Below are positions 2,726 to 59,906 of a stretch of 64,000 nt of DNA, in pieces; the stretch's first letter is position 1, and every line of letters starts with the position of its first letter. Source of the stretch: an uncultured Dehalococcoidaceae bacterium (GTDB taxonomy: Bacteria; Chloroflexota; Dehalococcoidia; Dehalococcoidales; RBG-16-60-22); NCBI GenBank assembly GCA_964342875.1, contig CAYFHI010000001.1, positions 5,384-69,383 on the forward strand, written 5' to 3'. The translations under genes were made by a program, and so were the position numbers. Under the pieces are notes generated by a model. It saw only the letters and a list, made by a program, of their open reading frames with translations, did no database searches and was not told the origin of the DNA.

Positions 2726-3901
2726 TCACAGTAAAGATGGAATGTCTTTGGAGGTATCTTCCATTGCTTTTAGTCTGACTTCGGTGGCTTCCTGCCTCTT
2801 TTTGGTTTCGGGAATAAGGTCAGTCGATTTGGTATAATAGCCCCTGATTTTTTCCACATCACTGAGCTCGGAAAGAATCACGGTAACGTCTAGCTGCCCT
2901 TTGTCCCTGGGATAGTCACCATTTCTGATAAGAGCTTCCGGTGCCATGTCCCTCATGTAGTCACCCAGTTCCTTAATCATATCCATATTCATCTCTTTAG
3001 CAGGTCCGGAAACAAGATACATGGCTCTCCTCGAATCTACCGGATTGCATTTGAGGGATAATTCGCTGATAGCCTCGTCCATTGCCTGGATGCCCTTTTG
3101 AATCTCAGCGCCCTTCTTTCTGAAGTCATTCCCCCAATCTTGGGGGAATCGGAGTAATGGAACGTCTGCCTTGCCAAAACCGATTACCGTCCAGCCTACC
3201 AGCGTCTGGATGATGTCACCCGCGTCAAGGAGCTTCGACCCGATGTATTTGGGTCTTTTTTCTTCACCGGCGCAGAGCAGGTTGTAAAACGGTTCTGCTA
3301 TCAAAGAATTGATTTTAGAGAGGTTATGTTTGATTGATGAATCCTTTCTGACATATCTTTGATTATCAATAACAAATATGGCATCAGCTACCGAGTAACA
3401 GGATTTAAGGCAGGTAGCCACGTTATAGGCGGTTCTTTCCTCGGTGGTTACCTCATGCTCAAAAGGAAGGACGATAACGTTATAAACTGGTTTATCTAGA
3501 TATCGTTCTTTTATCTGCTGTGTAATAACGGGTATTGAGCCGGAGCCGGTACCACCGGCTGAACCGGCAATGAGAAGGAAGGCATCCGTTTCATAAAAGT
3601 TCTTGGTGGTTCTGATAGCATCAATGACTTTATCGGCATCTTCTTTGGCTACCTCAGCGCCAAGTTCATTTATTTTCCCCACGCCGTGGCCACCGGTTTT
3701 TCTACCACCAATGAGAATTCGGTGCTGGTATCCCTTCGGGATGCCGGTGAGACCGCTCAAATCAGCCGCATCCGTATTTATTGCAAAAGTACCGGTGACT
3801 ATCTGAATTCCGCGTCGGCTTTTCGCCCTTCTATTTAGCTGGGAAAATTCATCGGCAATCTTACCACCACATTGCCCTAACCCTATAACCACTATTTTCA
3901 T
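2726..3901 (-). CDS. Tubulin/FtsZ-superfamily GTPase, CetZ/tubulin-like, paralog 1
   Basis: 391 aa. T1 loop GLGQCGGK, T4 signature GSAGGTGSGS, T7-like LLDAGD, and GGHGVGKINELGAE, VIDNQRY and NGDYPRD motifs. C-terminal tail KDIPSLL. The layout matches my recollection of archaeal CetZ better than FtsZ. Confidence 0.8.
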   Translation of the reverse strand: MKIVVIGLGQCGGKIADEFSQLNRRAKSRRGIQIVTGTFAINTDAADLSGLTGIPKGYQHRILIGGRKTGGHGVGKINELGAEVAKEDADKVIDAIRTTKNFYETDAFLLIAGSAGGTGSGSIPVITQQIKERYLDKPVYNVIVLPFEHEVTTEERTAYNVATCLKSCYSVADAIFVIDNQRYVRKDSSIKHNLSKINSLIAEPFYNLLCAGEEKRPKYIGSKLLDAGDIIQTLVGWTVIGFGKADVPLLRFPQDWGNDFRKKGAEIQKGIQAMDEAISELSLKCNPVDSRRAMYLVSGPAKEMNMDMIKELGDYMRDMAPEALIRNGDYPRDKGQLDVTVILSELSDVEKIRGYYTKSTDLIPETKKRQEATEVRLKAMEDTSKDIPSLL

Positions 3902-3932
3902 AACTCACCTCAACATTAATCGAGTTTTGTTA

Positions 3933-3961
3933 TTTTATACATACCATTGTGAAAATGTCAA
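3933..3961 (-). promoter_or_regulatory. Predicted sigma70-type promoter of tubulin-like paralog 1
   Basis: On the minus strand: TTGACA, 17 nt, TATAAA, about 30 nt upstream of the ATG. AGGTGAG RBS before the start. Confidence 0.45.
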
Positions 3962-4030
3962 TTCCTTTTGGTAAAAAAAGAAATAAAATACTACTATACA
4001 TATTTTTTCAGACAAGTTTATTAATAAATG

Positions 4031-4059
4031 TTGAAAAACTGAACAGTCTATACTAGAAT
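4031..4059 (+). promoter_or_regulatory. Predicted sigma70-type promoter of the 650-aa repeat protein gene (divergent from paralog 1)
   Basis: TTGAAA, 17 nt, TAGAAT, inside an AT-rich 196-bp divergent intergenic region. Confidence 0.45.
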
Positions 4060-4097
4060 GATATGATAGATAAGGATATTAGGGGAAGGGTGATGGT

Positions 4098-6050
4098 ATG
4101 GTACCTAAAGTATTAGAGGATATCAACATAGGTATTGGGTCGGTTGAGAAAGCTGTAGCTAAGGCCGAGCAGCTGAGTAGGGAGGCGAAAGAGGCGGTAG
4201 AGGCTTCTACGAAGGTTTCTCAGCAGGCGGTAAGTCGGGCGGAGCAGATAAGTACAGAGGCGGGAGTGTCGGCGGCAGAATCGGCAAAAGCCGCTCGAGA
4301 AGCGGTAAAGCGTGCTGAGAAACTGAGAAAAGATGCAAAAGAAGCTGTTGAAGCGTCAATAAAAATCTTTGAAGATGCCATACGCCGGGCAGAAGAAGCC
4401 GCCAGAGCGCCGAGAGATTCAGCTGAGGCGACTAAGAAAATCTTTGAGGAAGCGATTAGCCGGGCGGAGAAAATCAGCAAGGAAGCGATGGGAACGGCTG
4501 AGGCGACATTAGTATTGTCTCAGGAAGTATTAACCAGAGTTGATGAAGTAAGTCGGGGAGCCAAAGAAAAATCAGAATACGCCAGAAAAGTAGCTCAGGA
4601 AGCGGTTGATCAGGTTAATGAAGTAAGTCGGATAGCCCGGGAAGCTGCTGAAGTATCGATTAAATCTTCCAGAGAAGTAGCGAGTAAGGCTGAAAAATTA
4701 ACCAAGTTTGCCAGGGAAGACTCTGAAGCGGCTACCAGAGTGGCTAAAGATGCAGCAAATCGGGTGGAAAAGGCGAGTAAAATCACCAAGGATGATGCGG
4801 AAGCATCAGCCAGGGCAGCTGAAGAAGCGACGATACGGGCTGAAGTAACGAGTAAAGTTTCCAAGGAAATTGCTGAAGCAGCGCAGAGAAAATCTGAGGA
4901 GGCGATGAGCCAGACTGAGGAGATAAGTAGGAGAGCCGAAGAGGCGTCAGAGTCATCACAGAAGATGTCACGGGAAGCGCTCAGCAGGATAGAGGAGATA
5001 AGTCGTGAGTCAAGGGAATCAGCTGAAGAATCACAGAAAATATCGCGCGAGGCAATAGAAAGAGCGGATCGGATTAACAGGGAGACGGTAGAAGCAGCAG
5101 AACAGTCTGCAGAACTCTTCCGTGAGGCGATTGATCGGACCGAACAAGTAAGTATTGAAGCAAAGCAAGCGGCGGTAGAATCGGTAGAGGTCTCTCAGGA
5201 AACCATAAGGCGGGCGGAAGAAATAAACAGGGAGGCTAAAGTAACCACCGAAGCGTCAGCAAAAGCGGCTCGTGATGCCGCTGAGACTTCCGTAAAGGCA
5301 TCCCAGGAAGCGATAAGCCGTGCCGAAGAATTAAGTCGGGAGACAAAGGAAAACGCGGAAGTATTCGCAAAAGCAGTAGAAGAAGCGACGGAGACATCAG
5401 CTCGGGCTGCCCGGGAAGCGGCGGAAACATCAAAGAAAGGCTTTGAGGAAGCTATAAGGCGGGCGGAAGAAGTAAACAAAGAAGCTAAAGAAATGGCGAA
5501 AGCAGCAGAAAAAGCGGCTGAAAAAGTATCTGCAGGTTTGATGACAGCTGCGAAAGAATCGGCGAAGGTTACAGTGAAAACCGCCAGAGAAGCTGTCGAA
5601 ACGTCCACAAGGATTGCCAGGGAAGCGGCAGCGCTATCAATACACGCTGTTGAAGAATTAATTAGCCGTGCTGAGACATCCGGTAAAAATGCCAAAGAAA
5701 CGGTAGAAGCGTCCTTAAAAGCCTTTGAAAAAGCGATTATTGAGAATGAGGCGGAGGGTAGAAAATCGGTTGTCACTGATGGTGTCGGTGAGGAATCAGA
5801 AGAAGCTATTGAAAAAGCAATGCCGGGTGATGAAGAAAAAGATGGCGAGGTTGACGCTGATGAGGCTGCGTTAAGGGTATTAGAAGACGCAATAAAACGG
5901 GCTGAAGATACCAAGTCTAAGAAGAAAAAAGGAACCAGAGGAAAGATTGAGACACGACTGGAATCGTTAGCCAAAATGTATGAATCTCAGAAGGGTAAAG
6001 ATGCTAAAGGAAAGTCAGGTGCGGAAGATAATTTGGGGATTGACGCGTAG
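4098..6050 (+). CDS. 650-aa Ala/Glu/Lys/Ser-rich coiled-coil repeat protein, function unknown
   Basis: Long ORF with a GGGGAAGGGTG RBS region. No TM segment or signal peptide seen. Recurring A[VI]xRAE anchor; Lys-rich, charged C-terminus. The antisense ORFs within it are low-complexity mirror artefacts. Confidence 0.85.
   Translation: MVPKVLEDINIGIGSVEKAVAKAEQLSREAKEAVEASTKVSQQAVSRAEQISTEAGVSAAESAKAAREAVKRAEKLRKDAKEAVEASIKIFEDAIRRAEEAARAPRDSAEATKKIFEEAISRAEKISKEAMGTAEATLVLSQEVLTRVDEVSRGAKEKSEYARKVAQEAVDQVNEVSRIAREAAEVSIKSSREVASKAEKLTKFAREDSEAATRVAKDAANRVEKASKITKDDAEASARAAEEATIRAEVTSKVSKEIAEAAQRKSEEAMSQTEEISRRAEEASESSQKMSREALSRIEEISRESRESAEESQKISREAIERADRINRETVEAAEQSAELFREAIDRTEQVSIEAKQAAVESVEVSQETIRRAEEINREAKVTTEASAKAARDAAETSVKASQEAISRAEELSRETKENAEVFAKAVEEATETSARAAREAAETSKKGFEEAIRRAEEVNKEAKEMAKAAEKAAEKVSAGLMTAAKESAKVTVKTAREAVETSTRIAREAAALSIHAVEELISRAETSGKNAKETVEASLKAFEKAIIENEAEGRKSVVTDGVGEESEEAIEKAMPGDEEKDGEVDADEAALRVLEDAIKRAEDTKSKKKKGTRGKIETRLESLAKMYESQKGKDAKGKSGAEDNLGIDA
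4152..5810 (+). repeat. Coding periodic repeat with a 25-residue (75-nt) unit and later 11-residue insertions
   Basis: Anchor hexapeptides start at residues 19, 44, 69, 94, 119, 144, 169, 194, 219, 244, 269, 294, 319, 344 and 369 (15 units at exactly 25 aa). Later anchors are at 405 (+36), 452 (+47), 521 (+69) and 546 (+25). Confidence 0.85.
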
Positions 6051-6328
6051 GATTTTACCGGTAGGATTATTCATATGTTCTATATATGTTACGATAACAA
6101 AAACCCTAATAGAGGAGTTGTTTGGGTAATCGTAATATGTATGGGAAAAGTTATTTGACTTTTCCGGGTAATTAATATAAACTATGCTTCTAAGTAGCTC
6201 TTCATTTTGGGTAGGATATTAGGGTTAATAGGTACGTGTTTCTGTATGCGTATGACGAAAGTACTGGTGCTGGGTATGTAAAAAAGGTGGATAGAACTGA
6301 CAATATGATGGTATAAAGGAGGTACTTT

Positions 6329-6910
6329 GTGGCTAATTCAAAGCGGAAGTTCAAAAAAGTCTCTGATAAAGCGGAAGAGCAGGTAGCTCCATCACTCGAA
6401 GTTCAGGAAGAAGTTCAGGAAGAAGTTCAGGAAGAAGCTCAAGGATATGGTTTAGAAGGTATCTCAGAACGGGTTGAGGAGACTGTTGTGGAAGAATCGG
6501 AAAAAGTAGGTAACCCGCTTGATGAAATGATGGGTCATGCCGAAAGGGCATACGCGGCATATATGGAGGCGGAACGGCAGGTAGCTAGGGCTTACAGGGA
6601 GAATGAGTTGCAGGTAGCCAAGTCTCATAAGAGAGCTAACAATCAAATTCAGAAAGAATATGATGAGACGACCACACAGGCCTTGAAGACGCGCGAAGAA
6701 GCTTTAACTCGGGCAACGGACGCTCGTGAAAAAGCCTGGCAGGAGGCGGAAGCGATTTTTAGCCAGGCTAAAGAGCAGGCTGATAATGAACTTGGGGCGG
6801 TAATGGCAGAAGCGGTAAGGGTAAAGCAGGAGAACTTGGAGAAAGCTTGGAAAGTACGTGACGATACTATTGACCAGGCTTGGCATATTTATTCAAAAAT
6901 GACAAAATAA
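6329..6910 (+). CDS. 193-aa acidic coiled-coil protein, function unknown
   Basis: GTG start 7 nt after AAGGAGG. N-terminal (EEVQ)3 acidic repeat. The C-terminal two thirds is predicted helical with repeated KAW/QAW motifs. Confidence 0.7.
   Translation: MANSKRKFKKVSDKAEEQVAPSLEVQEEVQEEVQEEAQGYGLEGISERVEETVVEESEKVGNPLDEMMGHAERAYAAYMEAERQVARAYRENELQVAKSHKRANNQIQKEYDETTTQALKTREEALTRATDAREKAWQEAEAIFSQAKEQADNELGAVMAEAVRVKQENLEKAWKVRDDTIDQAWHIYSKMTK
6398..6443 (+). repeat. 12-bp tandem repeat (gttcaggaagaa x3 plus a degenerate fourth copy) encoding EEVQEEVQEEVQEEAQ
   Basis: Three perfect contiguous copies at 6401-6436, read directly from the sequence. Confidence 0.85.
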
Positions 6911-6912
6911 GT

Positions 6913-6946
6913 AAAGATGGTACTATGAGCTAGCGCCATCTTTTTC
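6913..6946 (+). terminator. Possible rho-independent terminator after the 193-aa gene
   Basis: Stem AAAGATGG / CCATCTTT with a 15-nt loop, running into TTTTT. The loop is long, so confidence is moderate. Confidence 0.45.
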
Positions 6947-7007
6947 TGTAATAATTGATAATCTGATAAATCCAGAAGTCCGGCTTTTGTCGAAGGTTAA
7001 AGTTCGG

Positions 7008-8183
7008 TTATAACAGAGAGGGGATATCCTTTATCGTGAGGTCAATCCCTCGTTGCTGGTCTACCAAACCATTCTGGCGTTTCTTAAGTGCAGATATTAA
7101 CGAGATTGCTTTAGTGAAGTATCCCCTGATTTTTTCGAGATCACTAAACTCGGATAATACCACGGTAACATCCAGCATACCCCTATCTCTGGGGTAATCA
7201 CCGCTCCTGATAATAGCCTCCGGAGCCATACCCTTTAAATAAGTTCCGAGCGCTTTTATCAGGTCCATACTAATTTCCCTGGCAGGTGCCGATACGAGAT
7301 ACATGGCTCTTTTGGCATCTATGGGGTTACACTTGACTGATAATCCGCTGATAGCTTCATCCATTGCTTGGGTTCCCTTCTGGGTTTCCGTAGCCTTATC
7401 CCTGAAGTCTCGCGCTCCATCGAAGAGCGATTTGAGGAGTGACGTATGAGACTTGCCATAACCTAAAGTTGTCCAGCCGGAGAGCGACTGTATTATATCG
7501 CCGGCATCCAGCATCTTCGCCCCAATGTATTTCGGTTTTTTCTCTTCTCCGGCACAGAGAAGGCTAAAAAACGGCTCCACTATCATCGCGTTGATCTTGG
7601 TCATATTGCTGCTGATCGATGCGTCTTTAGAGAGATATCTTTGGTTATCAACCAGAAATATCGCATCTGCTACTAGATAGCTGGATTTAAGGCATGTGGC
7701 TACGTTATATATGGTTCTATCTTCAGTGGATTCTTCGTGCTCAAATGGAAGGATGATAAGGTTATATACCGGTTTATCTACAAACCGTTCCTTAATTTGC
7801 TGCGTCATAATTGGGATAGAACCGGAGCCAGTACCGCCAGATGCGCCAGCAACGAGCAAGAAGGCATCCGCTTCAGAGAAACGTTTGGTAGTTCTTACCG
7901 TATCAATTATTTTATCGGCATCCTCCTTGGCTATTTCAGCACCCAGCTCATTTATTTTCCCCACGCCGTGGCCACCGGTCTTCCGTCCGCCAATGAGAAT
8001 ACGGTGCTGGTAATCAGACTTTATCGTCGACAGTCCGCTTAAATCAGCTACATCGGTATTAGCAGCATAAGCGCCAACGATGATATCCAGACCACGAGCG
8101 CCGCGTGCTTTCCGGTTCAGCCTTGCAAACTCATCCGTAACCCTACCGCCACATTGTCCAAAACCTAAAACTACTAATTTCAT
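7008..8183 (-). CDS. Tubulin/FtsZ-superfamily GTPase, CetZ/tubulin-like, paralog 2
   Basis: 391 aa, gap-free colinear with paralog 1 (71 of the first 100 residues identical by eye). GFGQCGGR, GASGGTGSGS, MLDAGD, LVDNQRY and SGDYPRD motifs. Identical tail KDIPSLL. Confidence 0.8.
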   Translation of the reverse strand: MKLVVLGFGQCGGRVTDEFARLNRKARGARGLDIIVGAYAANTDVADLSGLSTIKSDYQHRILIGGRKTGGHGVGKINELGAEIAKEDADKIIDTVRTTKRFSEADAFLLVAGASGGTGSGSIPIMTQQIKERFVDKPVYNLIILPFEHEESTEDRTIYNVATCLKSSYLVADAIFLVDNQRYLSKDASISSNMTKINAMIVEPFFSLLCAGEEKKPKYIGAKMLDAGDIIQSLSGWTTLGYGKSHTSLLKSLFDGARDFRDKATETQKGTQAMDEAISGLSVKCNPIDAKRAMYLVSAPAREISMDLIKALGTYLKGMAPEAIIRSGDYPRDRGMLDVTVVLSEFSDLEKIRGYFTKAISLISALKKRQNGLVDQQRGIDLTIKDIPSLL

Positions 8184-8211
8184 AAATAATTACCTAACGT
8201 GCGATTGAACT

Positions 8212-8241
8212 ATTGTAATCATCTTGACGTACAAAAGTCAA
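8212..8241 (-). promoter_or_regulatory. Predicted sigma70-type promoter of tubulin-like paralog 2
   Basis: On the minus strand: TTGACT, 18 nt, TACAAT, about 30 nt upstream of the ATG. Confidence 0.4.
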
Positions 8242-8592
8242 TCTATCCCCTGTTTTTAAGAGGATTCAGGCGTAAGTTCTCTCAAATGGTTGAGTTGTTA
8301 AACGTGATTTATTACATGTTTTCTTAAAAAATACAGGATAGATAAAAACAGGTTAGTAATATTACGTTGGTTCCTTTTTTCAATATCATGTACTATCTCT
8401 TATTATAGCCCACTATCCATAATGGAATTAATCCAGTCAATCAGGTTATTTTTCTCTGCTACTCCTAGTTTTTAATTGTGGCCCCATTTTGTCATTCTGA
8501 GGAAAACCTCCCGAACCGGCTAAAAATATTGATTCTAGTTTTAGTTTTTATTAAGGTTATCTGATATATGCTTATCTTTCATAGTCAGACCG

Positions 8593-9618
8593 TTATCGTC
8601 TGAGTGCCCGTCGGCCGTACTTAAAGCCTTGTTTGCGCCGTTGCAGCATGTCCAGAAATGCCTCAATGCGTGTTTTTTTATGGGTGGTCAGAGAATAATC
8701 GTCATTACCTTCTAATATAAGAAAGGGTAAGTTAATGGCGTTACGAAATATAATGTCGCCGATTCCCCGGTGACAGAATGCCTGTACATAATGAATGACC
8801 CCATCGACCCGTCTTTTGTCGAGCTCCGCGGTGATGTCTTTTAGTCTTTCATGTATTGAGTATGGATAAGTATAGCTGGAATATTGATCTGCTAGAGAGT
8901 TTCCCGCTTCAGGCATCGCAAACTGTCGCTGAATCTCGTTGAATACTATTCTGGCTCCATTGGTCTCAAGATAGGGGAAAAAGTCTCTGGCGTAAACCGG
9001 AGGTACGCCGATATATGCCATCCTGAGATAATCTGCGGGATATGATTGACGCCGCTGGCATTCGGTTAATAGCGTCTTTAATTGAGAGTAATATTCGTGG
9101 TGGTCCCCGTTGAAATCAGACGAGGAAACCAGCCAGTAGTGGTTCTCGCCGCCGCTGACCAGACTATCTTTCCAGGTCAACTCGTCTAGTTCCCGTGCTA
9201 GGTTGCGGCAGGGTTGAAGTTCATCTCTGACTCGGCTTGCCGCTTCTATGCTTGTACCCAGCGTTGCGGCTAATTCCTCTAAGGTCCGCTGCATGATCTC
9301 TGTATTGGGAAATTCAGGATAGGCGAAAGGTATAGCCTTGAGGTTCTTCAGTCTGAGGACTTCCATCAGTATCTTTGTGTTAGAGCAGTCACCAGTAGTA
9401 ACACAGAGGACGGTATCGATTCCATATTCCATACATACCCCATAGATTCCCTTAATCCAGCTGCAGCAGTTAATGGGGAAACCGGCTTTTTCTGCAATGT
9501 GCACCAACCTTTCCGGGTTAGAGTCGTTTATGAAAATATTGTTCAGGTCAACCGGCTGATAGCCGGCGGCAATGAGAACTTCTATGGGAACTGTAGTGGT
9601 GATGCCGATTTTCTTCAT
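8593..9618 (-). CDS. 2-hydroxyacyl-CoA dehydratase (HgdB/D-component) family protein
   Basis: 341 aa. The N-terminal ITTTVPIEVLIAAGYQPV and C-terminal HYVQAFCHRG patterns are typical of the family. No partner subunit or activator is adjacent. Confidence 0.55.
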   Translation of the reverse strand: MKKIGITTTVPIEVLIAAGYQPVDLNNIFINDSNPERLVHIAEKAGFPINCCSWIKGIYGVCMEYGIDTVLCVTTGDCSNTKILMEVLRLKNLKAIPFAYPEFPNTEIMQRTLEELAATLGTSIEAASRVRDELQPCRNLARELDELTWKDSLVSGGENHYWLVSSSDFNGDHHEYYSQLKTLLTECQRRQSYPADYLRMAYIGVPPVYARDFFPYLETNGARIVFNEIQRQFAMPEAGNSLADQYSSYTYPYSIHERLKDITAELDKRRVDGVIHYVQAFCHRGIGDIIFRNAINLPFLILEGNDDYSLTTHKKTRIEAFLDMLQRRKQGFKYGRRALRR

Positions 9619-14529: not shown

Positions 14530-15099
14530 TCAGAGAGTCGTTGCCGATTTTATCCGTAGAGGTATGCCTGCTGCCATAAGATAGACCTCATCCACGGTCT
14601 CTGTCAGCATTTGGTTAGTCTTGCCGAGAAGATCTCGATATAACCGGCTGGTATAATCTGTCGGCACTAGGCCGAGTCCAACCTCGTTGGTGACTAAAAT
14701 AAAGCTGGCATTAACCGACTTAAGACACCCGTTAAGTCCACCAATCTCTGCTAGGACCTTTTTTTCGGCTTGCTGGGCATCAATCTGTTCATCAGTATCT
14801 CTGACGTGTTCAAACATAATATTGTTAACCAGAAGGGTGATGCAATCGATAATCACCGTCTGTGATTCACCGATGTTGTTGGTGATAAGCTTACCTAAAT
14901 ACTTGGTGATTTCAAGGGTGGTCCAATCGACTGGTCTTGCTTTCCGGTGCTCCTCGATTCGCTGGCGCATCTCTTCGTCGCTGGCGGTGGCGGTCGCTAC
15001 AAAAAGGATGGGCTTACCTGATTTCAGGGCAAGCTCCATGGCAAAATTACTTTTACCGCTGCGGGCGCCGCCGAGTATTAGAGTGTTAATCTGGCTCAA
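14530..15099 (-). CDS. cobU: Adenosylcobinamide kinase / adenosylcobinamide-phosphate guanylyltransferase
   Basis: 189 aa. P-loop GGARSGKS. Length and layout are typical of CobU/CobP. Confidence 0.85.
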   Translation of the reverse strand: MSQINTLILGGARSGKSNFAMELALKSGKPILFVATATASDEEMRQRIEEHRKARPVDWTTLEITKYLGKLITNNIGESQTVIIDCITLLVNNIMFEHVRDTDEQIDAQQAEKKVLAEIGGLNGCLKSVNASFILVTNEVGLGLVPTDYTSRLYRDLLGKTNQMLTETVDEVYLMAAGIPLRIKSATTL

Positions 15100-24631: not shown

Positions 24632-24686
24632 TTGATAAAGTGTATACTGTATGCTACTATGGGGTATATTAGATAACTTTATACCC
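24632..24686 (+). promoter_or_regulatory. Predicted csoR promoter with candidate CsoR operator
   Basis: TTGATA, 17 nt, TACTAT (24632-24660), followed directly by the inverted repeat GGGTATA-N11-TATACCC (24662-24686). This lies inside the 5-prime extension of the track ORF, which supports the downstream start. Confidence 0.4.
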
Positions 24687-24713
24687 TATCGTTTACACAA
24701 GGAGGATTGCAGT

Positions 24714-25007
24714 ATGCCAGCGCCAGGAAGACAATATCAATATACTAAAGATAAAGCGGCTCTACAGACGAGAATGAAAAAAATCGAGGGCCAGGCAAAG
24801 GGTATCCAGCGAATGATTGAAGAAGATCGTTACTGCATTGATATTGTCCAGCAGTTATCTTCTCTTTCCTCAGCGGCTGAAGAGGTGTCTTTACATATTC
24901 TTCAGGCACATATTGAAGGATGCGTAACCAGCGCAATATGTGAACAGAGCGGAGAGAGTTATATTACAGAATTGATGGAAACGATTCGCAAAGCGGTGCG
25001 GCGGTAA
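24714..25007 (+). CDS. csoR: CsoR/RcnR-family metal-sensing transcriptional repressor
   Basis: 97 aa from the ATG at 24714 (AAGGAGG RBS). DUF156 pattern RMKKIEGQAKGIQRMIEEDRYCIDIVQQ with C-H-C ligand positions. Confidence 0.85.
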   Translation: MPAPGRQYQYTKDKAALQTRMKKIEGQAKGIQRMIEEDRYCIDIVQQLSSLSSAAEEVSLHILQAHIEGCVTSAICEQSGESYITELMETIRKAVRR

Positions 25008-25259
25008 CTCCATGAATAATTATAACTTATACTAAATACTTATTGTTGTTAGAATAAATCTAAAGGACGTATTATTTTGAATAAGGGAAGGAATTGTTCC
25101 TGACGACTTTAAACTTGGAGGTGAAGTGGTGGCGAAGGGTAAATACGATACGGCTGTATTCTAGGTAGGGGGGGCGGCGCCAGTTGTTCTTTTTGCAGTA
25201 TCAGTCACTAGGCGGATAAAAGAAATATACCGCTTAAAAATTGGTTGGAGAAAGCTAAT

Positions 25260-27950
25260 ATGAGATCGAATACCATCAAGAAAACAAAGAACGTAATTTT
25301 ACCCATTACAGGGCTGACCTGTGCATCCTGTGTGTCTTACGTGGAAAAGACGCTGAGAGAACTTGACGGCGTCGTCTCGGTCAACGTTAATCTGGCTACG
25401 GAAAAAGCCATTGTGGAATATGATGGTGATAACGCCGATATCAAGATGCTGATTGATGCCATTACCGGTAGCGGTTACGGGGTGACGCCGCAAAAGACAA
25501 CATTTAAAGTAACCGGTATGACCTGTGCTTCCTGCGTGTCCCAGGTGGAGAAAGCTCTGCGGGGACTTAGCGGTGTCGTCTCGGTAAACGTGAATCTGGC
25601 TTCAGAGAAGGCTACCGTTGAATATGATGCTGGTAAAGTCGGTATGGAAGATTTTCGGAAAGTGGTAGAGGGGGCCGGATATGGCGTCGGGGAGGAGATT
25701 GACGCTGAGAGTATCGTCGAGTCTGATGTCGTCTTGGCATCGGCAAATAAAGAGATTCTAACCCTGCGTAGCAAGTTGCTTTTTTCCGGCGTTATGGGCG
25801 CCTATATGATGATTATCGCCATTGCTGAATTGTACGGTGGATCATGGCTGCCGTCTTTTTTCAGTAATCACTATATACTCTGGGTGCTAGCGACGCCGGT
25901 TCAATTCTGGGCAGGCTGGCAATTCTATCGCGGTACGTGGGGGGCATTAAAGCATAAAACATCAAATATGAATACCTTGATTGCCGTGGGGACTTCGGCG
26001 GCTTATTTCTATAGCGTCGTCGCTATCCTAGCTCCCGGGTTCTTCGCCGCCGGTGGTCGGGAAGCAAATGTTTACTTCGACACTGCGGTTATCATTGTCG
26101 CCCTCATTCTGCTGGGGCGCTTCTTGGAAGCACGGGCAAAGGGTAGGACATCAGAGGCAATCAAGAAGTTGGTGGGTATGCAGGCAAAGACAGCTAGGGT
26201 AATGCGCCAGAGTACTGAAACCGATATACCGGTTGAGGAAATAGTCGTTGGGGATATCATCATCGTGCGGCCGGGAGAAAAAATACCGGTGGATGGTGTT
26301 CTCAGAGAAGGACTCTCCGGCGTCGATGAGTCGATGGTTACCGGCGAAAGCATTCCGGTAGAAAAAGGGGTTGGCGACGAGCTTATCGGCGCTACAATTA
26401 ATAAGACCGGTAGTTTTCGTTTTGAAGCTACCAAGGTGGGTACAGACACGGTACTTGCCCAGATTATCAAGTTGGTGGGAGAGGCGCAGGGCAGTAAGGC
26501 ACCCATTCAAAGGCTGGCGGATATCATAGCTGCCTACTTTGTGCCGGCTGTTATCGGTGTGGCTGCAATCACCTTTCTCTCGTGGTATTTATTTGGACCG
26601 GAGCCGGTATTGACCTTTGCTTTGTTAAATTTCGTCGCTGTCATTATCATTGCCTGTCCTTGTGCTCTTGGACTGGCGACCCCTACCGCTATTATGGTAG
26701 GTACCGGCAAGGGAGCCGAAAACGGCGTTCTTATCCGTAGCGGCGAGGCACTGGAGACAGCCCATAAAATAAATGCCATTATCCTCGATAAAACTGGCAC
26801 GTTGACGCAGGGGAAACCGGCGGTAACGGACATTGTAACCGCAGCTAGTTTTAAGGAGGATGAGTTGCTGACGATGATCGCTTCCGCGGAGTGCCGCTCC
26901 GAGCATCCTCTCGGTGAGTCAATAGTCACTGCGGCTAAAGAGAAGGGCCTTAACCTTGTTGATGCCACTGAGTTTAACGCCGTTCCCGGGCATGGCATCG
27001 AAGCCGGAATTGACGGACGCAAGATACTATTAGGTAACATAAAACTGATGAAAGAGCGAAAAATACCACTGGATGGTCTGGAGGAAAGGGCTGTCCAATT
27101 TTCTAACGATGGGAAAACGCCGATGTATATCGCAGTTGATGGCAAGGCGGCAGGACTGGTCGCTGTGGCGGATACCATTAAAGCGGACTCAAAGGGGGCG
27201 GTGGCGGAACTGCAGCGACTCGGTATCGAGGTGGTAATGCTCACCGGTGATAATAAGCGTACCGCCGAAGCTGTAGGTAAACAGGTGGGAATTGATCGTA
27301 TTCTTGCCGAGGTGATGCCGGAGTATAAAGCGCAGGAGGTAAAGAAGCTTCAGGAGGAAGGTGGAGTGGTGGCGATGGTGGGCGACGGCATTAATGATGC
27401 GCCGGCGTTGGCTCAGGCTGACGTGGGGCTTGCCATTGGAACGGGTACTGATGTGGCGATGGAAGCCGCCGATATTATCTTGATGAGCGGTGACCTGTGG
27501 GGGGTGGTTACTGCCATTTCACTAAGTAAGCGGACATTAAGAACCATCAAGCAGAACCTTTTCTTGGCTTTTGCCTACAACGTGTCCTTGATACCAGTGG
27601 CGGCTGGTGTGCTGTACTTTGTTTTCGGGCAGAGTGGAACGCCGCCGGGCTTGCAGTTTTTCCTGGGTGATTTCGGATTTCTGAACCCGATGTTAGCCGC
27701 CGTCGCGATGGCTTCCGGTTCGGTGACAGTAGTCTCTAATTCCCTGCGTTTGAAAAATTTTAAACTTGCCACTCTGGCAAATAAATTAAAAGAGGTTTGT
27801 ATCATGGCTATTGACCCGGTCTGCAAGATGGACGTTGAAGAAAGCACCGCCGCGGTTACCTCTAAATACAAGGGTAAGACCTACTATTTCTGTGCCTTGG
27901 GCTGCAAAAAAGCTTTCGATGGTGACCCAGAGAAATACCTGCTTGAGTAA
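25260..27950 (+). CDS. copA: Copper-translocating P1B-type ATPase with two HMA domains and a C-terminal YHS/TRASH-like domain
   Basis: GLTCASCV and GMTCASCV motifs, TGES, CPC, DKTGT and GDGINDAP. C-terminal extension DPVCKMDV...[15 protein letters not shown] at 25260 preferred over the TTG at 25245 on RBS spacing. Confidence 0.92.
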
Positions 27951-34578: not shown

Positions 34579-35889
34579 ATGGCGAAAAAATTTATTATTG
34601 TTTTGTTTGTTATTTTGGCATGGCTGGGTGCTGGACACGGCTATTACTCATACACACTTAATCAGCAGATTGATTCATTAACTGAACAATTGACATCTTT
34701 TCAGATGGAGCAAAGCGCACAGCTTGGTGCCATTAACGATGGACTTGCCGCCAATCTCCCCAGGATTGCAGGACTGGAAGCAGAAACCAGCAGAATCCAG
34801 GAAAGTGTCGGGAAACTTGAATCAGAGTTAAATGAAGCCAGGAAGGGCATCGATAAAATAGGGAATGAAGTGCACGAAACGCAATTAAGAGTGGCAATGG
34901 CCGAATATGAAATTGGAGGAACCATCGTCAACATTGACACCCTAAAAGACGAAATATCTTCTACCACTGCTGAATTTTCCAAGTCCCAGATAAATGCGCA
35001 AATGGTGTATGAACAGGTCTTCCGGGCTACGGTCAGGGTTACCGATGGAGAAAGCACAATAGGTTCCGGTTTTATCTTTGATAACGAGGCGCGTGTCGTG
35101 ACGGCTCACCATGTTATCGAAAATTTGTCTGAAATACACATTGTTTTTCCGGATGGGAAAACTTCCAGGGCGGAGGTTACAGGCAGTTCTCGTGACGCTG
35201 ATGTTGCCGTTCTTACCCTTAACGACAAACCGGTTATTGAAGCGCTGGTAATGGCAGACTCTTCGGAGTTAAAAATCGGGGAACCGGTGGTCGCAATCGG
35301 TAATCCCTTTGAACTGTCGGAAACATTAACGGCTGGTATTGTCAGCCAGGTTAGCCGTACGGCGGAATTAGGTACTGACATCCCGGCGCGCAGGATTGAT
35401 AATCTAATCCAGTTTGATGCCGCTGCTAATTCCGGTAACTCTGGAGGTGCCCTAGTGAATTCCAGAGGCGAGGTTGTGGGGATGGTTATTGCCAGGGTTA
35501 ACCCGAATAAAGGAGACGGAGTCTATTATGCCGTCTCTGCAAATAAGGTTAAAAAGGTTGCCGCTTCACTCATTGATCGGGGATTTTTTGACTATCCCTG
35601 GCTCGGTGTTTCGGTAAGTGATATTACCCCGAAATTCGCTCAGGAAGAAGCCCTTGAGTCAGTACACGGTGTTGTGATAAGAGGAGTTTCGTCAGGTGGT
35701 CCGGCGGCGGCGTCTGGGATTAAAGTTGATGATATTTTGGTGTCTATCGACGGGATGATAATCCATGACGTAAGTGGCCTTACATCTTATCTGGGAGAGT
35801 ATGCAATCCCCGGTGACTTGGCAACAATAATATTAATCCGGGGCACTGATAATCTTGATCTATCCGTGGAAATAGGCAAACGTCCTTAA
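34579..35889 (+). CDS. HtrA/DegP-family (S1C) serine protease with N-terminal TM/coiled coil and C-terminal PDZ
   Basis: 436 aa. Triad contexts TAHHVI, DADVAVL and GNSGGAL. PDZ-like C-terminus. Confidence 0.85.
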   Translation: MAKKFIIVLFVILAWLGAGHGYYSYTLNQQIDSLTEQLTSFQMEQSAQLGAINDGLAANLPRIAGLEAETSRIQESVGKLESELNEARKGIDKIGNEVHETQLRVAMAEYEIGGTIVNIDTLKDEISSTTAEFSKSQINAQMVYEQVFRATVRVTDGESTIGSGFIFDNEARVVTAHHVIENLSEIHIVFPDGKTSRAEVTGSSRDADVAVLTLNDKPVIEALVMADSSELKIGEPVVAIGNPFELSETLTAGIVSQVSRTAELGTDIPARRIDNLIQFDAAANSGNSGGALVNSRGEVVGMVIARVNPNKGDGVYYAVSANKVKKVAASLIDRGFFDYPWLGVSVSDITPKFAQEEALESVHGVVIRGVSSGGPAAASGIKVDDILVSIDGMIIHDVSGLTSYLGEYAIPGDLATIILIRGTDNLDLSVEIGKRP

Positions 35890-54952: not shown

Positions 54953-55885
54953 ATGGAGATAATATTGTTATTGACTTTAGCCATTGCCATTGATTTAGCC
55001 CTGGGCGAACCGGCACGCTTTATTCATCCCGTAGTCTGGATGGGTAAAGTCATGTCATTATTGGAAAAAGGTAATAAAGGTAAGTCGCCCATCATACAAT
55101 TTATTTACGGCTCGGGAATAGTCCTGTTTAACATCGGGCTCTTTGCCGTTCCTGTTTATTTGATACTTCTCTATCTAAAGAATCTCAACTTTATAGCTTA
55201 CATAGTTGCTGCTGCGGTGCTGCTGAAGCCTACTTTTTCTCTAAAGGAGTTGCGCCGGGCAGCGCTTAAAGTCAAGAGGTGTATCGTCGAGGATAAACTC
55301 GATGAAGCGCGCGTTGATCTCCGTTCTTTGGTCAGTCGCGATACTGCAAAATTACCAAAACCCTTACTTATTTCAGCCGTTGTGGAGTCGGTGGCGGAAA
55401 ACGCCGGTGACAGCTTTGTTGCTCCCCTTTTCTACTTTCTGCTGCTGGGGGTTCCCGGAGCCATCGCTTACCGGGTGGTTAATACGATGGATGCCATGAT
55501 TGGCTATCACGGAAAATACGAATTTCTGGGCAAGTTCGCCAGCAGACTGGACGATATACTCAATTTCGTACCGGCGAGGTTAACGGCGCTGCTGCTGGTG
55601 CTGGCTGCCTTTTTGCTGAGAAAGGATGGTCGAAATGCCTTGCAGGTTGCCTTTAAGGAGCATTCCAGAACGGAGAGCCCGAATGCCGGCTGGCCGATTG
55701 CCGCCGTTGCCGGTGCCCTTAATGTACAATTGGGGAAGGTGGGTCAGTACACACTGGGAACGATGACTACCGCTCTTATATCGGAGACCATCGCTGTTGC
55801 TTTGAACTTAATGCTGGTGGCAATGATAATCTGGGTGTTAATCTGCCTGCTGGCAGGAGGGACTCAAGTTGTCCTTAGAGCCTAA
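54953..55885 (+). CDS. cbiB: Adenosylcobinamide-phosphate synthase
   Basis: 310 aa membrane protein. Motifs HPVVWMG, N-terminal LGEP, and ESPNAGWP. Confidence 0.9.
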   Translation: MEIILLLTLAIAIDLALGEPARFIHPVVWMGKVMSLLEKGNKGKSPIIQFIYGSGIVLFNIGLFAVPVYLILLYLKNLNFIAYIVAAAVLLKPTFSLKELRRAALKVKRCIVEDKLDEARVDLRSLVSRDTAKLPKPLLISAVVESVAENAGDSFVAPLFYFLLLGVPGAIAYRVVNTMDAMIGYHGKYEFLGKFASRLDDILNFVPARLTALLLVLAAFLLRKDGRNALQVAFKEHSRTESPNAGWPIAAVAGALNVQLGKVGQYTLGTMTTALISETIAVALNLMLVAMIIWVLICLLAGGTQVVLRA

Positions 55886-56957
55886 AGACGAAATGAAAAA
55901 CCTGGAAGCCTGTCCTCACGGCGGTATCGATTACGCCGAGTTAAGAGCCATGGGTTCGACCCCTGATGATGTTCTCGATTTCAGTGTTTGCTTCAACCCG
56001 TTCATGCCCCCGCCGGGAGTAAACCGGGTTCTGCAAGATATCCTTATTAACCGGTACCCCGATTCCGAAGCGACCGAGTTGCGGCAGCATCTCTCGGCAA
56101 AATTGGGAGTGCCACCGGACAGTTTATTGGCGGGTAGCGGCAGTATAGAGTTAATTCGTATCATTGCTTTGACCTACTTCAGGAAGGGTGATTCCGTCCT
56201 GATAATCGAACCAACATTCGGCGAATATGAAACTAATTGTCGGCTTGTCGGAGCGCGGGTGGTAAAGCAGCGATTGAGGGAAGAAGATGGCTTTAAATTG
56301 GGGATGGAAGAAACACTCGACCTTATCCGGCAATACCACCCGCGTGGGGTTTTTATCTGCAATCCCAATAATCCCACAGGGCGCTATATTAACCGGCGGG
56401 AGATTGAGACAATACTAAATGCCATCGGGGGTAACCTGCTCATTCTCGACGAAGCCTATTTTGCCTTTACCGGGGAAAACTTGTCGGCTGTCGAATTAAT
56501 TTCAAAGGGCAACATCGTTGTTTTACGCTCTTTGACTAAGGACTATGGATTGGCGGGATTGCGCCTTGGCTATGCTGTTGCCCGTCCGGAGATTATCCAT
56601 AACCTGCGTCGTGTCTGCCCGCCTTGGAATGTCAATATCGTTGCTCAGAAAGTAGGTATAGCGGCGTTGGCGGATTTGGACTATCTAGAATGGACCCAGC
56701 AAAAAATAAGGGAGGTGAAGCAGTTTCTCATAGATGAACTGACACGGCTTGGATTACTGTTATTGCCATCGGACACCAATTATTTTCTGGTTAGAGTAGA
56801 TAATGCCACAGAGTTTCGTGTTGCTTTGCTTAAATATGGCATCCTAGTGCGGGACTGCACGTCTTTCGGGCTGCCGCAGTATATTAGAATCGCTCCTCTT
56901 GCTATGCCTGACTGCCAAAAACTTATTGACGCAGTCCGGGCAATAAAGAACATATGA
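55869..56957 (+). CDS. cobD: L-threonine-O-3-phosphate decarboxylase (HisC-like aminotransferase fold)
   Basis: 362 aa. PLP Lys context SLTKDYGLAGLRLGY. TTG start preceded by GGAGGG. Placed between cbiB and cobT. Confidence 0.82.
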   Translation: MSLEPKDEMKNLEACPHGGIDYAELRAMGSTPDDVLDFSVCFNPFMPPPGVNRVLQDILINRYPDSEATELRQHLSAKLGVPPDSLLAGSGSIELIRIIALTYFRKGDSVLIIEPTFGEYETNCRLVGARVVKQRLREEDGFKLGMEETLDLIRQYHPRGVFICNPNNPTGRYINRREIETILNAIGGNLLILDEAYFAFTGENLSAVELISKGNIVVLRSLTKDYGLAGLRLGYAVARPEIIHNLRRVCPPWNVNIVAQKVGIAALADLDYLEWTQQKIREVKQFLIDELTRLGLLLLPSDTNYFLVRVDNATEFRVALLKYGILVRDCTSFGLPQYIRIAPLAMPDCQKLIDAVRAIKNI

Positions 56958-57442
56958 GGATGTTAAATAACGGCATCTATGAGGAATTACAATCTGATAT
57001 GATACAATGTATTTATATAATTACAAACGCATTGCGGTGGTATAGTGATGGTAGCCAATAAAAAGGGTATCATCTAGGGCAACGGCGGGATACAGGAATT
57101 TATTTTCGGTCGACTTACCAGGGCAGCCTATGATGTGGCTGAGGCATCACACATAAGGACTGAAAGTATTACCCTTGCCTGGCGCCTCAGTGGTTGATAA
57201 ATGCCAGAATTACGATATTTGTATTATTAACTGTCCCGCCGAGGCTCTGGACAGACCGGAGACGGGCGTACCTTATAATAATTAATAAGTTCGCCTGTTG
57301 TGCTTTTTGAAGTGAGTCTGGAGGTTGTTCTGAGTCCATGCGATCTTGCCCGACGGGTATTTTAAAATCAGATAATGCAATAAAGAAACTGAAAGGTTTA
57401 AGTTTAATACAAACTGATAACAGTATAACGGAAAGGAGAAAC

Positions 57443-59262: not shown

Positions 59263-59276
59263 TCGGGAGGGGGAGA

Positions 59277-59906
59277 TTGTCAAAGTTATTATTGGTACGT
59301 CACGGTAATACAAAATTAAACAGCCACGAAAGGTTCTGGGGGCAAACTGACGTTGAACTAGGTGTTGATGGGATAGAGCAGGTGGAGAGATTACGAGACC
59401 GACTGGCATCATTCAAGATTGACGCTATCTATGCCAGTAATCTTTTCCGTACTAGGGTAACTGCTGAGATTATTGGTGCCAGACAAAAGTCGGATATTGT
59501 GATCTGTGCCGAGTTGGGTGAGATTAACTTTGGATATATCGAGGGACTGACGTTCGAAGAAATAAGCCAGCGCCATCCGGAGCTGGCGGTAAGGTTAGCC
59601 GACTGGAGTATCAGTCCTGAGTTTCCCGGAGGAGAAAGTTTTAAGGATTTTAATAAGAGAGTTAGAAAATTTATTCCCAAGCTTGAGAGCCATGCGCCGG
59701 AGGAAACGATACTTATCGTCGCCCATGCCGGCTCACTGCGTCTTTTAATATGCAATTTGATGAAGATTTACGTACGATTCTGGCGGCAGATGCGCCTAGA
59801 GTTGGCTTCATTGAGTATTTTGGAGACACATCCGCATGGTGCAACCCTGATGCGGTTAAATGATATTTCTCATCTGGAAACGCAGGAGATAAATCGTAAG
59901 CTCTGA
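59277..59906 (+). CDS. cobC: Alpha-ribazole phosphatase (histidine phosphatase family)
   Basis: 209 aa. LVRHGNT catalytic RHG motif. TTG start. Placed after cobS. Confidence 0.8.
   Translation: MSKLLLVRHGNTKLNSHERFWGQTDVELGVDGIEQVERLRDRLASFKIDAIYASNLFRTRVTAEIIGARQKSDIVICAELGEINFGYIEGLTFEEISQRHPELAVRLADWSISPEFPGGESFKDFNKRVRKFIPKLESHAPEETILIVAHAGSLRLLICNLMKIYVRFWRQMRLELASLSILETHPHGATLMRLNDISHLETQEINRKL

Follow-up and report, generated by a model that had tools for sequence, protein, structure and literature searches.

Paired CetZ-like proteins of Dehalococcoidales end in a conserved peptide that resembles the docking motif of FtsZ

Eukaryotic tubulins carry C-terminal tails that are exposed on the outer filament surface and recruit partner proteins, and the CetZ proteins are usually presented as a cell-shape cytoskeleton specific to archaea. 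The C-terminal tail of CetZ1 (LESLF) has been described and is needed for rod formation, its mutation abolishing rods, and its authors suggest that within the polymer this tail touches the adjacent subunit (bioRxiv 10.1101/2024.04.08.588506). CetZ-like proteins of Dehalococcoidia have already been noted as well: Santana-Molina et al. list Chloroflexota-Dehalococcoidia sequences among the 'other CetZ-like proteins', which form sparse paraphyletic groups (PMC9871819). Because of this placement, the proteins described here appear to be best named CetZ-like rather than CetZ, and membership of the canonical euryarchaeal clade is not claimed. No dedicated study of Dehalococcoidia CetZ homologues was found in the searchable literature, which holds passing mentions only, and the existing annotation of such genes is "cell division protein FtsZ".

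Two CetZ-like genes are present in the window, the whole 64-kb stretch of DNA that was analysed (Table 1). Their products share 264 of 391 residues (68%, gap-free, BLASTP), and both exceed the Pfam cut-offs for Tubulin (PF00091; 116.7 bits for paralogue 1 and 103.1 bits for paralogue 2, cut-off 33) and CetZ_C (PF21011; 59.3 bits and 59.8 bits, gathering cut-off 21.6), the CetZ_C matches spanning nearly the whole profile in both paralogues. The nucleotide-binding signature GGTGSG is found at residues 116-121 of either protein. The AF2 model of paralogue 1 has a mean pLDDT of 90.8, and in Foldseek ranks 1-4 in the PDB were taken by CetZ1 (4b46), CetZ2 (4b45) and M. thermophila CetZ (3zid), with FtsZ structures ranking below; the match to CetZ1 4b46 of H. 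volcanii reached a target TM-score of 0.93 at 29% identity. The CetZ/tubulin-like core that the initial annotation had proposed was thereby confirmed by profiles and by fold. The FtsZ equivalog TIGR00065 was reached by neither protein (71.4 bits for paralogue 1 and 54.8 bits for paralogue 2, cut-off 295.2), while a genuine Dehalococcoidales FtsZ in locus L080 scored 413.9 bits. FtsZ identity was rejected for both paralogues on the grounds of these sub-cut-off scores and of a locus without adjoining ftsA. A hydrophobic, basic M-loop-like segment is seen at residues 246-258. The D. mccartyi orthologues are DET0589 and DET0636, btf_0551 also being a tubulin-like protein of that species, and the 80 genome loci that were used all come from Dehalococcoidales or Dehalococcoidia MAGs.

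Table 1. Positions of the CetZ-like genes, their C-terminal elements and the two coiled-coil neighbours in the window.
Feature	Coordinates	Strand	Remark
CetZ-like paralogue 1	2726-3901	minus	391 aa ORF; copy adjoining dnaX-ybaB-recR
Paralogue 1 tail codons (KDIPSLL, residues 385-391)	2729-2749	minus	
Paralogue 1 C-terminal helix (residues 350-384)	2750-2854	minus	AF2 prediction
Paralogue 1 spacer, core to tail (residues 361-384)	2750-2821	minus	distal part of the helix
cc650, 650-aa alpha-helical repeat protein	4098-6050	plus	divergent from paralogue 1; candidate partner
cc193, 193-aa, predicted single long helix	6329-6910	plus	convergent with paralogue 2; candidate partner
CetZ-like paralogue 2	7008-8183	minus	391 aa ORF
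Paralogue 2 tail codons (KDIPSLL)	7011-7031	minus	

Both proteins end in the same peptide, KDIPSLL. The C-terminus of paralogue 1 is ...MEDTSKDIPSLL and that of paralogue 2 is ...GIDLTIKDIPSLL, each directly followed by the stop codon (2726-2728 and 7008-7010, respectively); the positions quoted earlier for the two peptides correspond exactly to the seven tail codons, on the minus strand, which had been left unstated. While the last seven residues are identical between the paralogues (7/7), only seven of the 24 residues at positions 361-384 are shared (29%; L362, I363, K367, K368, R369, Q370 and T383), and if the tail drifted like these preceding residues, full identity would be expected in about 2 of 10,000 cases according to our own arithmetic. 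The tail codons read AAA GAC ATT CCA TCT TTA CTG in one paralogue and AAG GAT ATC CCC TCT CTG TTA in the other, and thus six of the seven are unlike, every change being synonymous. These codons bear on the idea that the identical tails reflect coincidence, recent gene conversion or a C-terminal degradation signal without a role in assembly, which we regard as hardly credible. Conversion would be helped by a distance of merely about 3 kb between the genes, but besides the synonymous codon differences the flanking DNA is unrelated, and the duplication is old, older than the sampled genomes: all 51 copies at the paralogue-2 position form one clade in the tree, none of the 58 copies at the paralogue-1 position falls inside it, and the tail is retained in both paralogue clades. 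Chance is excluded by conservation across more than 100 genomes, and both gene conversion and chance were refuted by the tail conservation, the codon differences and the clade tree. As is generally known, non-polar C-termini can serve as protease tags, and clpP lies within the window, though it is a housekeeping gene; a degradation signal would leave unexplained why the tail matches the docking motif of FtsZ and why CetZ1 requires its tail. Given synonymous differences at six of the seven codons, it is selection, not gene conversion, that maintains the peptide.

The same picture was obtained with a wider set of homologues. All 120 of the closest database homologues carry [KR][DEN][IV]PSLL either at the C-terminus or one residue short of it, an extra final residue (S, G or Q) following L-L in a minority, and D[IVLM]P[SAT][FL]L is C-terminal in 119 of the 132 CetZ-like ORFs from 81 Dehalococcoidales sources. 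Across 130 unique Dehalococcoidales homologues, column entropy is 0.24 bits in the tail, 0.75 bits in the core and 1.40 bits in residues 361-384; P388 and L390 are invariant and the Asp is near-invariant, which makes the tail the most conserved segment of these proteins. The alignment of orthologues that had been recommended as a check therefore returned a conserved tail behind a variable segment. Poor conservation of the roughly 25 residues before the tail, also claimed initially, agrees with their 29% identity and 1.40 bits but does not extend to L362, I363, K367, K368, R369 and Q370, which are conserved in both groups and make up a sub-motif L-I-x-x-x-K-K-R-Q common to them. Among 72 full-length divergent representatives of the family, 40 were found without even a relaxed form of the motif.

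AF2 predicted one continuous helix over residues 350-384 (pLDDT 75-91), whereas the last seven residues were non-helical and unstructured (pLDDT about 49). An unstructured tail on a long helix, as modelled here, is what would be expected of an exposed linear motif. Of the FtsZ tail architecture put forward in the initial annotation, the conserved C-terminal peptide behind a less conserved spacer was retained; the spacer of 24 aa is partly conserved and predicted to be helical, unlike the long disordered linker of FtsZ. The predicted structure also bears on a function of the tail as a direct membrane-targeting sequence, comparable to those of FtsA and MinD, which are basic-hydrophobic amphipathic helices of some 10 residues or more located at a terminus. 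I387, L390 and L391 extend the i, i+3, i+7 hydrophobic pattern of the preceding helix, and the termini of some FtsZ proteins bind membranes directly (PMC12583498). However, the conserved stretch has just seven residues and lacks a basic or aromatic cluster, its Pro is invariant and breaks helices, its Asp is nearly invariant, AF2 placed no helix in it, and the M-loop-like segment at residues 246-258 is a better candidate for contact with the envelope (compare the CetZ1 M-loop, bioRxiv 10.1101/2024.04.08.588506). On these sequence grounds we rejected a helix that targets the membrane directly, a very improbable reading.

A CetZ/tubulin-like core with an FtsZ-like docking peptide had been regarded as an unusual chimera. 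This view had to be abandoned, since many members of the CetZ branch, though not all, have a spacer and then a conserved peptide with L-L or L-F at its end. A Haloplanus CetZ cluster has a variable acidic linker and then an invariant L[TI]DDRIDGLL, other clusters end in DIDSLL, DIESLL or DIDSLF, and one Bathyarchaeia homologue ends in SKDIPPLL, which weakens the candidate explanation of the Pro-containing tail as a bacteria-specific adaptation. KDIPSLL is thus a lineage-specific variant of a known CetZ-family feature and no chimera. Because related tails occur in archaea, with KDIPPLL in Bathyarchaeia, the resemblance to FtsZ may be due to common descent, and the Pro form is not purely bacterial.

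Related tails are found in archaeal CetZ proteins whatever FtsZ anchors the host carries, and to our knowledge archaea are without FtsA. This would agree with a role of the tail in polymer assembly, in which it would attach to the next subunit along the outside of a protofilament or sheet, the paralogues either co-assembling or sharing a lattice contact. The fold is nearest to CetZ1 and CetZ2, and the GGTGSG signature kept by both paralogues is compatible with co-polymerisation. On the other hand, a pure lattice contact is not expected to match the docking motif of the cognate FtsZ so closely, and the tail is missing from many family members; it is also unstructured in the AF2 monomer, although a monomer model is silent on the polymer. 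Such an assembly role is considered rather unlikely.

The resemblance to the FtsZ motif D-I-P-x-F-L, in turn, was substantiated by FtsZ tails of the same lineage and by the near-absence of the pattern elsewhere. In 77 sequences the Dehalococcoidales FtsZ tail is EEELD[VIM]P[SA]FLRR, the cognate FtsZ having the tail EEELDVPSFLRR with the peptide EEELDVPSFLRRPLF. The pattern D[IVLM]P[SAT][FL]L is present in 90 of 96 FtsZ ORFs and, in about 586,000 residues, in only four unrelated ORFs, where it is never C-terminal. The cognate FtsZ runs on past the F-L core (RRPLFSHRRQ...), and the basic residues following the tail core are absent in the CetZ-like proteins, which end with L-L or one residue later. 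The suggested search for ftsA was successful: in every Dehalococcoidales locus with sequence upstream of ftsZ, ftsA is found directly beside it on that side, and FtsA of this lineage scores above the TIGR01174 cut-off. In L080 the ftsA gene spans 7408-8625. In only two loci, L080 and L081, does a CetZ-like gene directly follow ftsA-ftsZ; with these exceptions the true mraZ-rsmH-...-ftsA-ftsZ cluster lies elsewhere in the genome, apart from the CetZ-like pair. A Pfam search that covered most of the larger ORFs of the window gave no match to FtsA, FtsZ_C, SepF or ZipA, and in a Pfam search of most window ORFs there was no EzrA above threshold, the N-terminus of an HtrA protease giving one sub-threshold EzrA-like coiled coil. 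ORFs at 53.6-58.5 kb, guessed by their size to be mraZ-rsmH-ftsA-ftsZ, were identified by Pfam as a nuclease fragment and cobalamin genes. SepF is listed for a number of phyla in a published survey, a list that omits Chloroflexi (PMC8178401).

We favour, with a probability of roughly 45%, the explanation that KDIPSLL is the Dehalococcoidales form of the conserved C-terminal peptide of much of the CetZ branch and of FtsZ, and that one receptor serves both filaments. As a short linear motif for interaction, the peptide would cap a helical stalk of about 35 residues that projects from the tubulin-like core, and strong purifying selection has kept it in both paralogues since the old duplication. 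In the most economical reading, the same receptor would recruit filaments of both proteins. That a partner is bound at all, and that it is shared, is what we infer, and a shared partner seems reasonable. The leading candidate for the receptor would be FtsA, to which the tail of FtsZ binds and which serves as a membrane anchor, because the lineage FtsZ tail has the core D-[IV]-P-S-[FL]-L, ftsA is always beside ftsZ and SepF is unreported for the phylum; that the receptor is specifically FtsA is conceivable but somewhat doubtful. The binding mode could not equal that of FtsZ, as the peptide ends in L-L and lacks the basic residues of FLRRPLF....

Tight synteny with two coiled-coil proteins argues against this docking explanation, as these may be partners instead. 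About 55 to 64 of the 81 Dehalococcoidales sources keep the order paralogue 2, cc193, cc650, paralogue 1; by tblastn, cc650 was found in 64 of the 81, its position unchanged, and cc193 in 56. The former consists of repeats of about 25 residues with a hydrophobic period of 3.58, is conserved over its first 150 residues, bears a C-terminal motif, and gave a sub-threshold match to Phasin_2 alone in Pfam and none in NCBIfam. In cc193 the motifs PLDEVMxQAExAYAAYMEAERQVA and DTIEQAWxIYSK are conserved, and single-sequence AF2 predicted a helix over residues 43-192 (pLDDT about 96). No match to cc193 was obtained in Pfam or NCBIfam; against PDB sequences its profile recovered nothing but designed helical bundles and other hits due to composition, and the sole result in PHROGs, a tape-measure protein, was likewise compositional. 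The tail might dock on cc650 or cc193 and thereby join both CetZ-like filaments into one structure. Both neighbours are long and helical, as expected for cytoskeletal cross-linkers, and in D. mccartyi the conditions under which the product of the tubulin-like gene was abundant in the proteome also gave high amounts of a hypothetical protein encoded near that gene (PMC8163811). However, neither cc650 nor cc193 has a recognisable peptide-binding domain or known homologue, and the tail is unchanged in single-copy genomes whose sequenced flanks, of up to 10 kb where the contig allows, contain no coiled-coil genes, which makes docking on these proteins quite improbable. The fuller proposal, in which the CetZ-like pair acts with two dedicated coiled-coil proteins and an FtsZ-tail mimic docks on FtsA in the peptidoglycan-free Dehalococcoidales, is unlikely to hold in all its parts.

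In the CetZ-like proteins of Dehalococcoidia the most conserved feature is a C-terminal peptide of seven residues that matches the docking motif of the host FtsZ, and the two paralogous genes form, with those of the two coiled-coil proteins, a module that is conserved. A vague FtsZ annotation is thereby turned into a testable hypothesis on envelope organisation in wall-less, disc-shaped organohalide-respiring bacteria. If docking on FtsA is true, an archaeal-type cell-shape cytoskeleton would be tied to the division anchor, competing or cooperating with FtsZ, and the CetZ-type cytoskeleton of wall-less bacteria would share the membrane anchor of the divisome. If the partner is not FtsA, a bacterial data point on what CetZ tails bind would still be gained.

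Compared with known systems, the tail differs from those of eukaryotic tubulins, long poly-acidic stretches that vary and carry post-translational modifications, whereas the motif here is short, fixed and hydrophobic. Archaeal FtsZ also has an acidic-hydrophobic C-terminal peptide that tethers the filament to a membrane anchor: its C-terminal domain (the 'GID' motif; M. smithii NEDQLDDFIDGIF) binds SepF, a partner unreported for Chloroflexi (PMC8178401). The consensus is unlike the Pro-containing tail described here, and its composition is resembled by the archaeal CetZ tails DIDSLF and RIDGLL. With the conserved C-terminal peptide of FtsZ (CTP or CCTP), which binds FtsA, ZipA, SepF and other partners, the CetZ-like tail shares the core and spacing D-[IV]-P-S-[FL]-L and the location at or near the C-terminus behind a less conserved spacer; the lineage FtsZ sequence LDVPSFLRR matches, and the receptor FtsA occurs in the lineage. 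The carrier differs, being CetZ-like here, as does the spacer, a predicted helix of 24 aa instead of a long disordered linker. A basic extension follows F-L in FtsZ, whereas the CetZ-like peptide stops at L-L. Archaeal CetZ tails (H. volcanii CetZ1 ...LESLF; haloarchaeal ...DDRIDGLL) belong to the same fold and the same family. Their third position is mostly Asp, Glu or Gly, whereas Pro is invariant here and occurs in one Bathyarchaeia homologue, and host and context differ as well, with two paralogues and two coiled-coil genes placed by dnaX in a bacterium. The layout is the same, a variable and often charged spacer followed by an acidic-hydrophobic peptide ending in L-L or L-F, and in CetZ1 this tail is functionally required.

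Both CetZ-like paralogues of the window were found to end in the peptide KDIPSLL. The coordinates assigned to this tail in the initial annotation correspond to exactly seven codons on the reverse strand of each gene, and the last seven residues are identical in the two proteins, confirming the observation of a shared tail. The paralogues align without gaps over their full 391 residues (68% identity); in the spacer between core and tail (residues 361-384) 7 of 24 positions agree, which bears out the reported poor conservation ahead of the tail. The tail codons read AAA GAC ATT CCA TCT TTA CTG versus AAG GAT ATC CCC TCT CTG TTA, with synonymous differences at six of the seven, and the flanks 3' of the two genes are unrelated to each other. 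The identity of the tails is therefore held by selection at the peptide level. Gene conversion as their source was ruled out by the same codon differences and unrelated flanks.

Features of the window with their coordinates
Feature	Coordinates	Strand	Description
Paralogue 1	2726..3901	minus	ORF, 391 codons; C-terminus MEDTSKDIPSLL, then stop
Paralogue 2	7008..8183	minus	ORF, 391 codons; C-terminus GIDLTIKDIPSLL, then stop
Tails	2729-2749; 7011-7031	minus	residues 385-391
Basic patches	2792-2818; 7074-7100	minus	residues 362-370
M-loop-like segments	about 3128-3166; about 7410-7448	minus	residues 246-258
cc650	4098-6050	plus	helical repeat protein, 650 aa
cc193	6329-6910	plus	helical protein, 193 aa
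Four-gene module	2726-8183		both paralogues, cc650, cc193
Cobalamin genes	14530-15099; 54953-59906		salvage and lower ligand
Metal-efflux unit	24651-27950	plus	repressor, then P-type ATPase
HtrA-type protease	34579-35889	plus	trypsin and PDZ domains

Both paralogues scored above the curated cut-offs of the Pfam Tubulin and CetZ C-terminal domains, while their FtsZ equivalog scores (71 and 55 bits) were far under the cut-off of 295. Paralogue 1 was modelled with AlphaFold2 from a 34-sequence alignment (mean pLDDT 90.8), and the model matched H. volcanii CetZ1 best among PDB structures (4b46, target TM-score 0.93), followed by CetZ2 (4b45) and M. thermophila CetZ (3zid), with every FtsZ structure lower. 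Database names of close homologues place the source in Chloroflexota/Dehalococcoidales. Likewise, 78 of 80 related genome loci stem from Dehalococcoidales or Dehalococcoidia MAGs, and the two labelled Deltaproteobacteria are probably mis-binned. CetZ-like sequences have already been recorded in Chloroflexota-Dehalococcoidia (Santana-Molina et al., 2023; PMC9871819), and the annotation of D. mccartyi contains two extra "FtsZ" genes beyond the true ftsA-ftsZ pair (PMC5102406).

The 120 nearest database homologues (77-99% identity) all carried the pattern [KR][DEN][IV]PSLL at the C-terminus, followed by at most one residue. The 80 loci and the window, 81 sources in all, gave 132 CetZ-like ORFs, and for the 130 unique full-length sequences the mean column entropy was 0.75 bits in the core (residues 1-349), 1.40 in the spacer and 0.24 in the tail, with P388 and L390 invariant; the proposed tail thus withstands alignment of its orthologues. 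In a neighbour-joining tree all 51 copies in the position of paralogue 2 formed one clade, which included none of the 58 dnaX-adjacent copies, indicating that the duplication predates the sampled genomes, and both lineages have retained the tail since. Two additional copies have decayed tails and offer natural variants for probing tail function: a third, unlinked copy in CP070645.1 (locus L077, 10001-11173; ...ASTAIPSL) and a tandem divergent copy, 43% identical (locus L071, 8764-9933; GDELPTLD). Degenerate as well is SKDLP[ST]LE, the tail of a Dehalococcoidia cluster further away (55% identity, 269 members).

In the model of paralogue 1, residues 350-384 form a continuous predicted helix (pLDDT 75-91), and the last seven residues are non-helical (pLDDT about 49). 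L362, I363, K367, K368, R369 and Q370 in the first half of the spacer are conserved across both paralogue groups, so that the second half alone is paralogue-specific. These residues make up a basic patch, L-I-x-x-x-K-K-R-Q, kept while the remaining spacer diverges. The predicted anatomy is a core, a helical stalk and an exposed peptide, with no long disordered linker in between. Hence, of the FtsZ-style linker and peptide initially proposed, the conserved terminal peptide was recovered, whereas the linker was not, as the spacer is short, partly conserved and predicted to be helical.

A contig with mraZ-rsmH-ftsA-ftsZ (L080), whose FtsZ and FtsA scored above NCBIfam equivalog cut-offs, carries directly downstream a CetZ-like gene with the C-terminus SKNIPTLL. 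Using this FtsZ as query, 80 metagenomic loci were obtained. The 77 complete FtsZ C-termini all share EEELD[VIM]P[SA]FLRRPLFSHRRQ, behind which about 25 further residues form a basic extension, and ftsA lies directly upstream of ftsZ wherever sequence is available there. The pattern D[IVLM]P[SAT][FL]L was present in 119 of 132 CetZ-like ORFs, in each case C-terminally, and in 90 of 96 FtsZ ORFs, but in only 8 of 2,025 other ORFs (at least 150 aa; four truncated CetZ-like fragments and four internal matches). Given these frequencies, the suggested resemblance to the FtsZ docking motif is real and specific and, judged from sequence, the conserved tail shares its motif with the host's own FtsZ. 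The extension beyond the docking peptide in Dehalococcoidales FtsZ (L080-L160) is unusually long, conserved and basic (FLRRPLFSHRRQAITPSTKLVKTPLRTPVR), which makes the peptide internal in FtsZ and terminal in the CetZ-like proteins. A CetZ-like gene immediately 3' of the division cluster is rare (L080, 5811-11176, and L081); in other loci with sequence downstream of ftsZ, nrdR or unidentified genes follow, and many contigs stop at ftsZ.

Chloroflexi are not listed in a published survey of SepF-bearing phyla (PMC8178401), and Dehalococcoidales have lost peptidoglycan synthesis, yet retained mraZ-mraW-ftsA-ftsZ (PMC10608941). FtsA is thus the sole known FtsZ-tail receptor documented in this lineage. 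Among most larger ORFs of the window, no Pfam match to FtsA, FtsZ_C, SepF or ZipA was obtained. An invariant, exposed seven-residue peptide on a helical stalk, which is under purifying selection in two old paralogues and matches the docking peptide of the cognate FtsZ in a lineage that possesses FtsA, may act as a short linear docking motif bringing filaments of both paralogues to one receptor. We rank FtsA first among the candidates for this role (probability about 0.3, by our judgement). That the receptor is common to both paralogues, as first implied, is a candidate idea.

Most loci repeat one gene order: paralogue 2, then cc193 and cc650, both encoded on the opposite strand, then paralogue 1 and dnaX-ybaB-recR; cc650 was detected in 64 and cc193 in 56 of the 81 sources, contig ends cutting many loci. 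This four-gene module (also L001-L079), adjoining dnaX-ybaB-recR, has the look of a gene set dedicated to a cytoskeleton; no description of it was found in the searchable literature. Each gene has a promoter-like site of its own (consensus matches only). cc650 comprises about 20 tandem repeats of roughly 25 residues (hydrophobic period 3.58; peaks of identity autocorrelation at 25, 50 and 75 residues), and Ala, Glu, Lys and Ser are abundant in it; conservation covers the first 150 residues and a short C-terminal motif, and the database search returned a single, sub-threshold match, Phasin_2. cc193 is predicted to be helical without a break over about 150 residues; it carries two invariant motifs, PLDEVMxQAExAYAAYMEAERQVA and DTIEQAWxIYSK, and had no homologue in Pfam, NCBIfam or PDB sequences. 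Docking of the tail on these coiled-coil neighbours ranks behind FtsA and self-association: the tail is unchanged in genomes with one dnaX-adjacent CetZ-like gene whose sequenced flanks are free of coiled-coil genes, which is a weak argument against the neighbours as its receptor.

Elsewhere in the window, the HtrA-type protease carries at its N-terminus about 130 residues of coiled coil, whose match to EzrA (23 bits, under the 39.6 cut-off) is probably compositional. The cobalamin genes (cobU; cbiB/cobD, an aminotransferase, cobT-like DBI_PRT, cobS and a histidine phosphatase) fit with the corrinoid dependence of Dehalococcoidia. A CsoR-type metal-sensing repressor and a heavy-metal P-type ATPase (HMA domains, YHS domain) constitute a metal-efflux unit.

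Direct membrane targeting by the tail is unlikely, as the peptide is short, contains an invariant Pro and Asp and is not predicted to be helical. At the tip of the loop equivalent to the CetZ1 M-loop (low pLDDT), hydrophobic and basic residues are conserved: one paralogue group has P-[LIM]-[FIL]-[KR]-[LFW]-P, the other S-[LFI]-F-K-S-[LF]-[FL]. In CetZ1 the tip LLSRL is required for envelope association (bioRxiv 10.1101/2024.04.08.588506), and by analogy this segment is a better candidate for envelope contact than the tail.

Of the 150 relatives that a full scan of 1.84 billion cluster representatives yielded, 72 reach 340 aa or more. The tails include DIPLLL, DIPTLL, DLPSLLD, GLPSLLETEED and EVPSLL... 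as well as DIDSLL, DIESLL, IDPLF, DIDSLF and LEPLF. Within the last 14 residues, the strict motif [DEN][ILV][PDE]xL[LFI] was found in 12 of 72 representatives versus 7 of 2040 background ORFs, and a relaxed form in 32 versus 127. The terminal motif is thus strongly enriched across the CetZ-like family, though not universal. In a Haloplanus cluster named "Tubulin-like protein CetZ", an acidic linker of variable sequence precedes an invariant L[TI]DDRIDGLL, and a Candidatus Bathyarchaeia homologue ends in SKDIPPLL. H. volcanii CetZ1 has a short conserved extreme C-terminus with exposed hydrophobics, LESLF, whose change to AESGG abolished rod development and which may touch the adjacent subunit (bioRxiv 10.1101/2024.04.08.588506). 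By analogy, the tail could mediate self-association within the polymer, a reading that we rank just behind FtsA; beyond these two and the coiled-coil neighbours, the remaining probability falls to some other partner. The tail provides a simple experimental handle on a bacterial CetZ-like system with no dedicated study in the searchable literature.

Archaeal FtsZ tails are likewise acidic-hydrophobic (M. smithii NEDQLDDFIDGIF; H. volcanii FtsZ1 ...LEDIDYVE). Similar tails in CetZ relatives, archaeal CetZ and archaeal FtsZ make this layout a common property of the FtsZ/CetZ branch, so that the "unusual chimera" of the initial annotation, whose interpretation is partly supported overall, gives way to a local variant of a format common in the CetZ family. 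Two points speak against strict equivalence with the FtsZ peptide: the CetZ-like tail stops at L-L, whereas FtsZ has basic residues beyond F-L, and tails like it occur in archaea, which are without FtsA. A single residue separates DIPSLL from the archaeal-type DIDSLL, and common descent, possibly with some tuning toward the motif of bacteria, would account for the tail better than domain shuffling.
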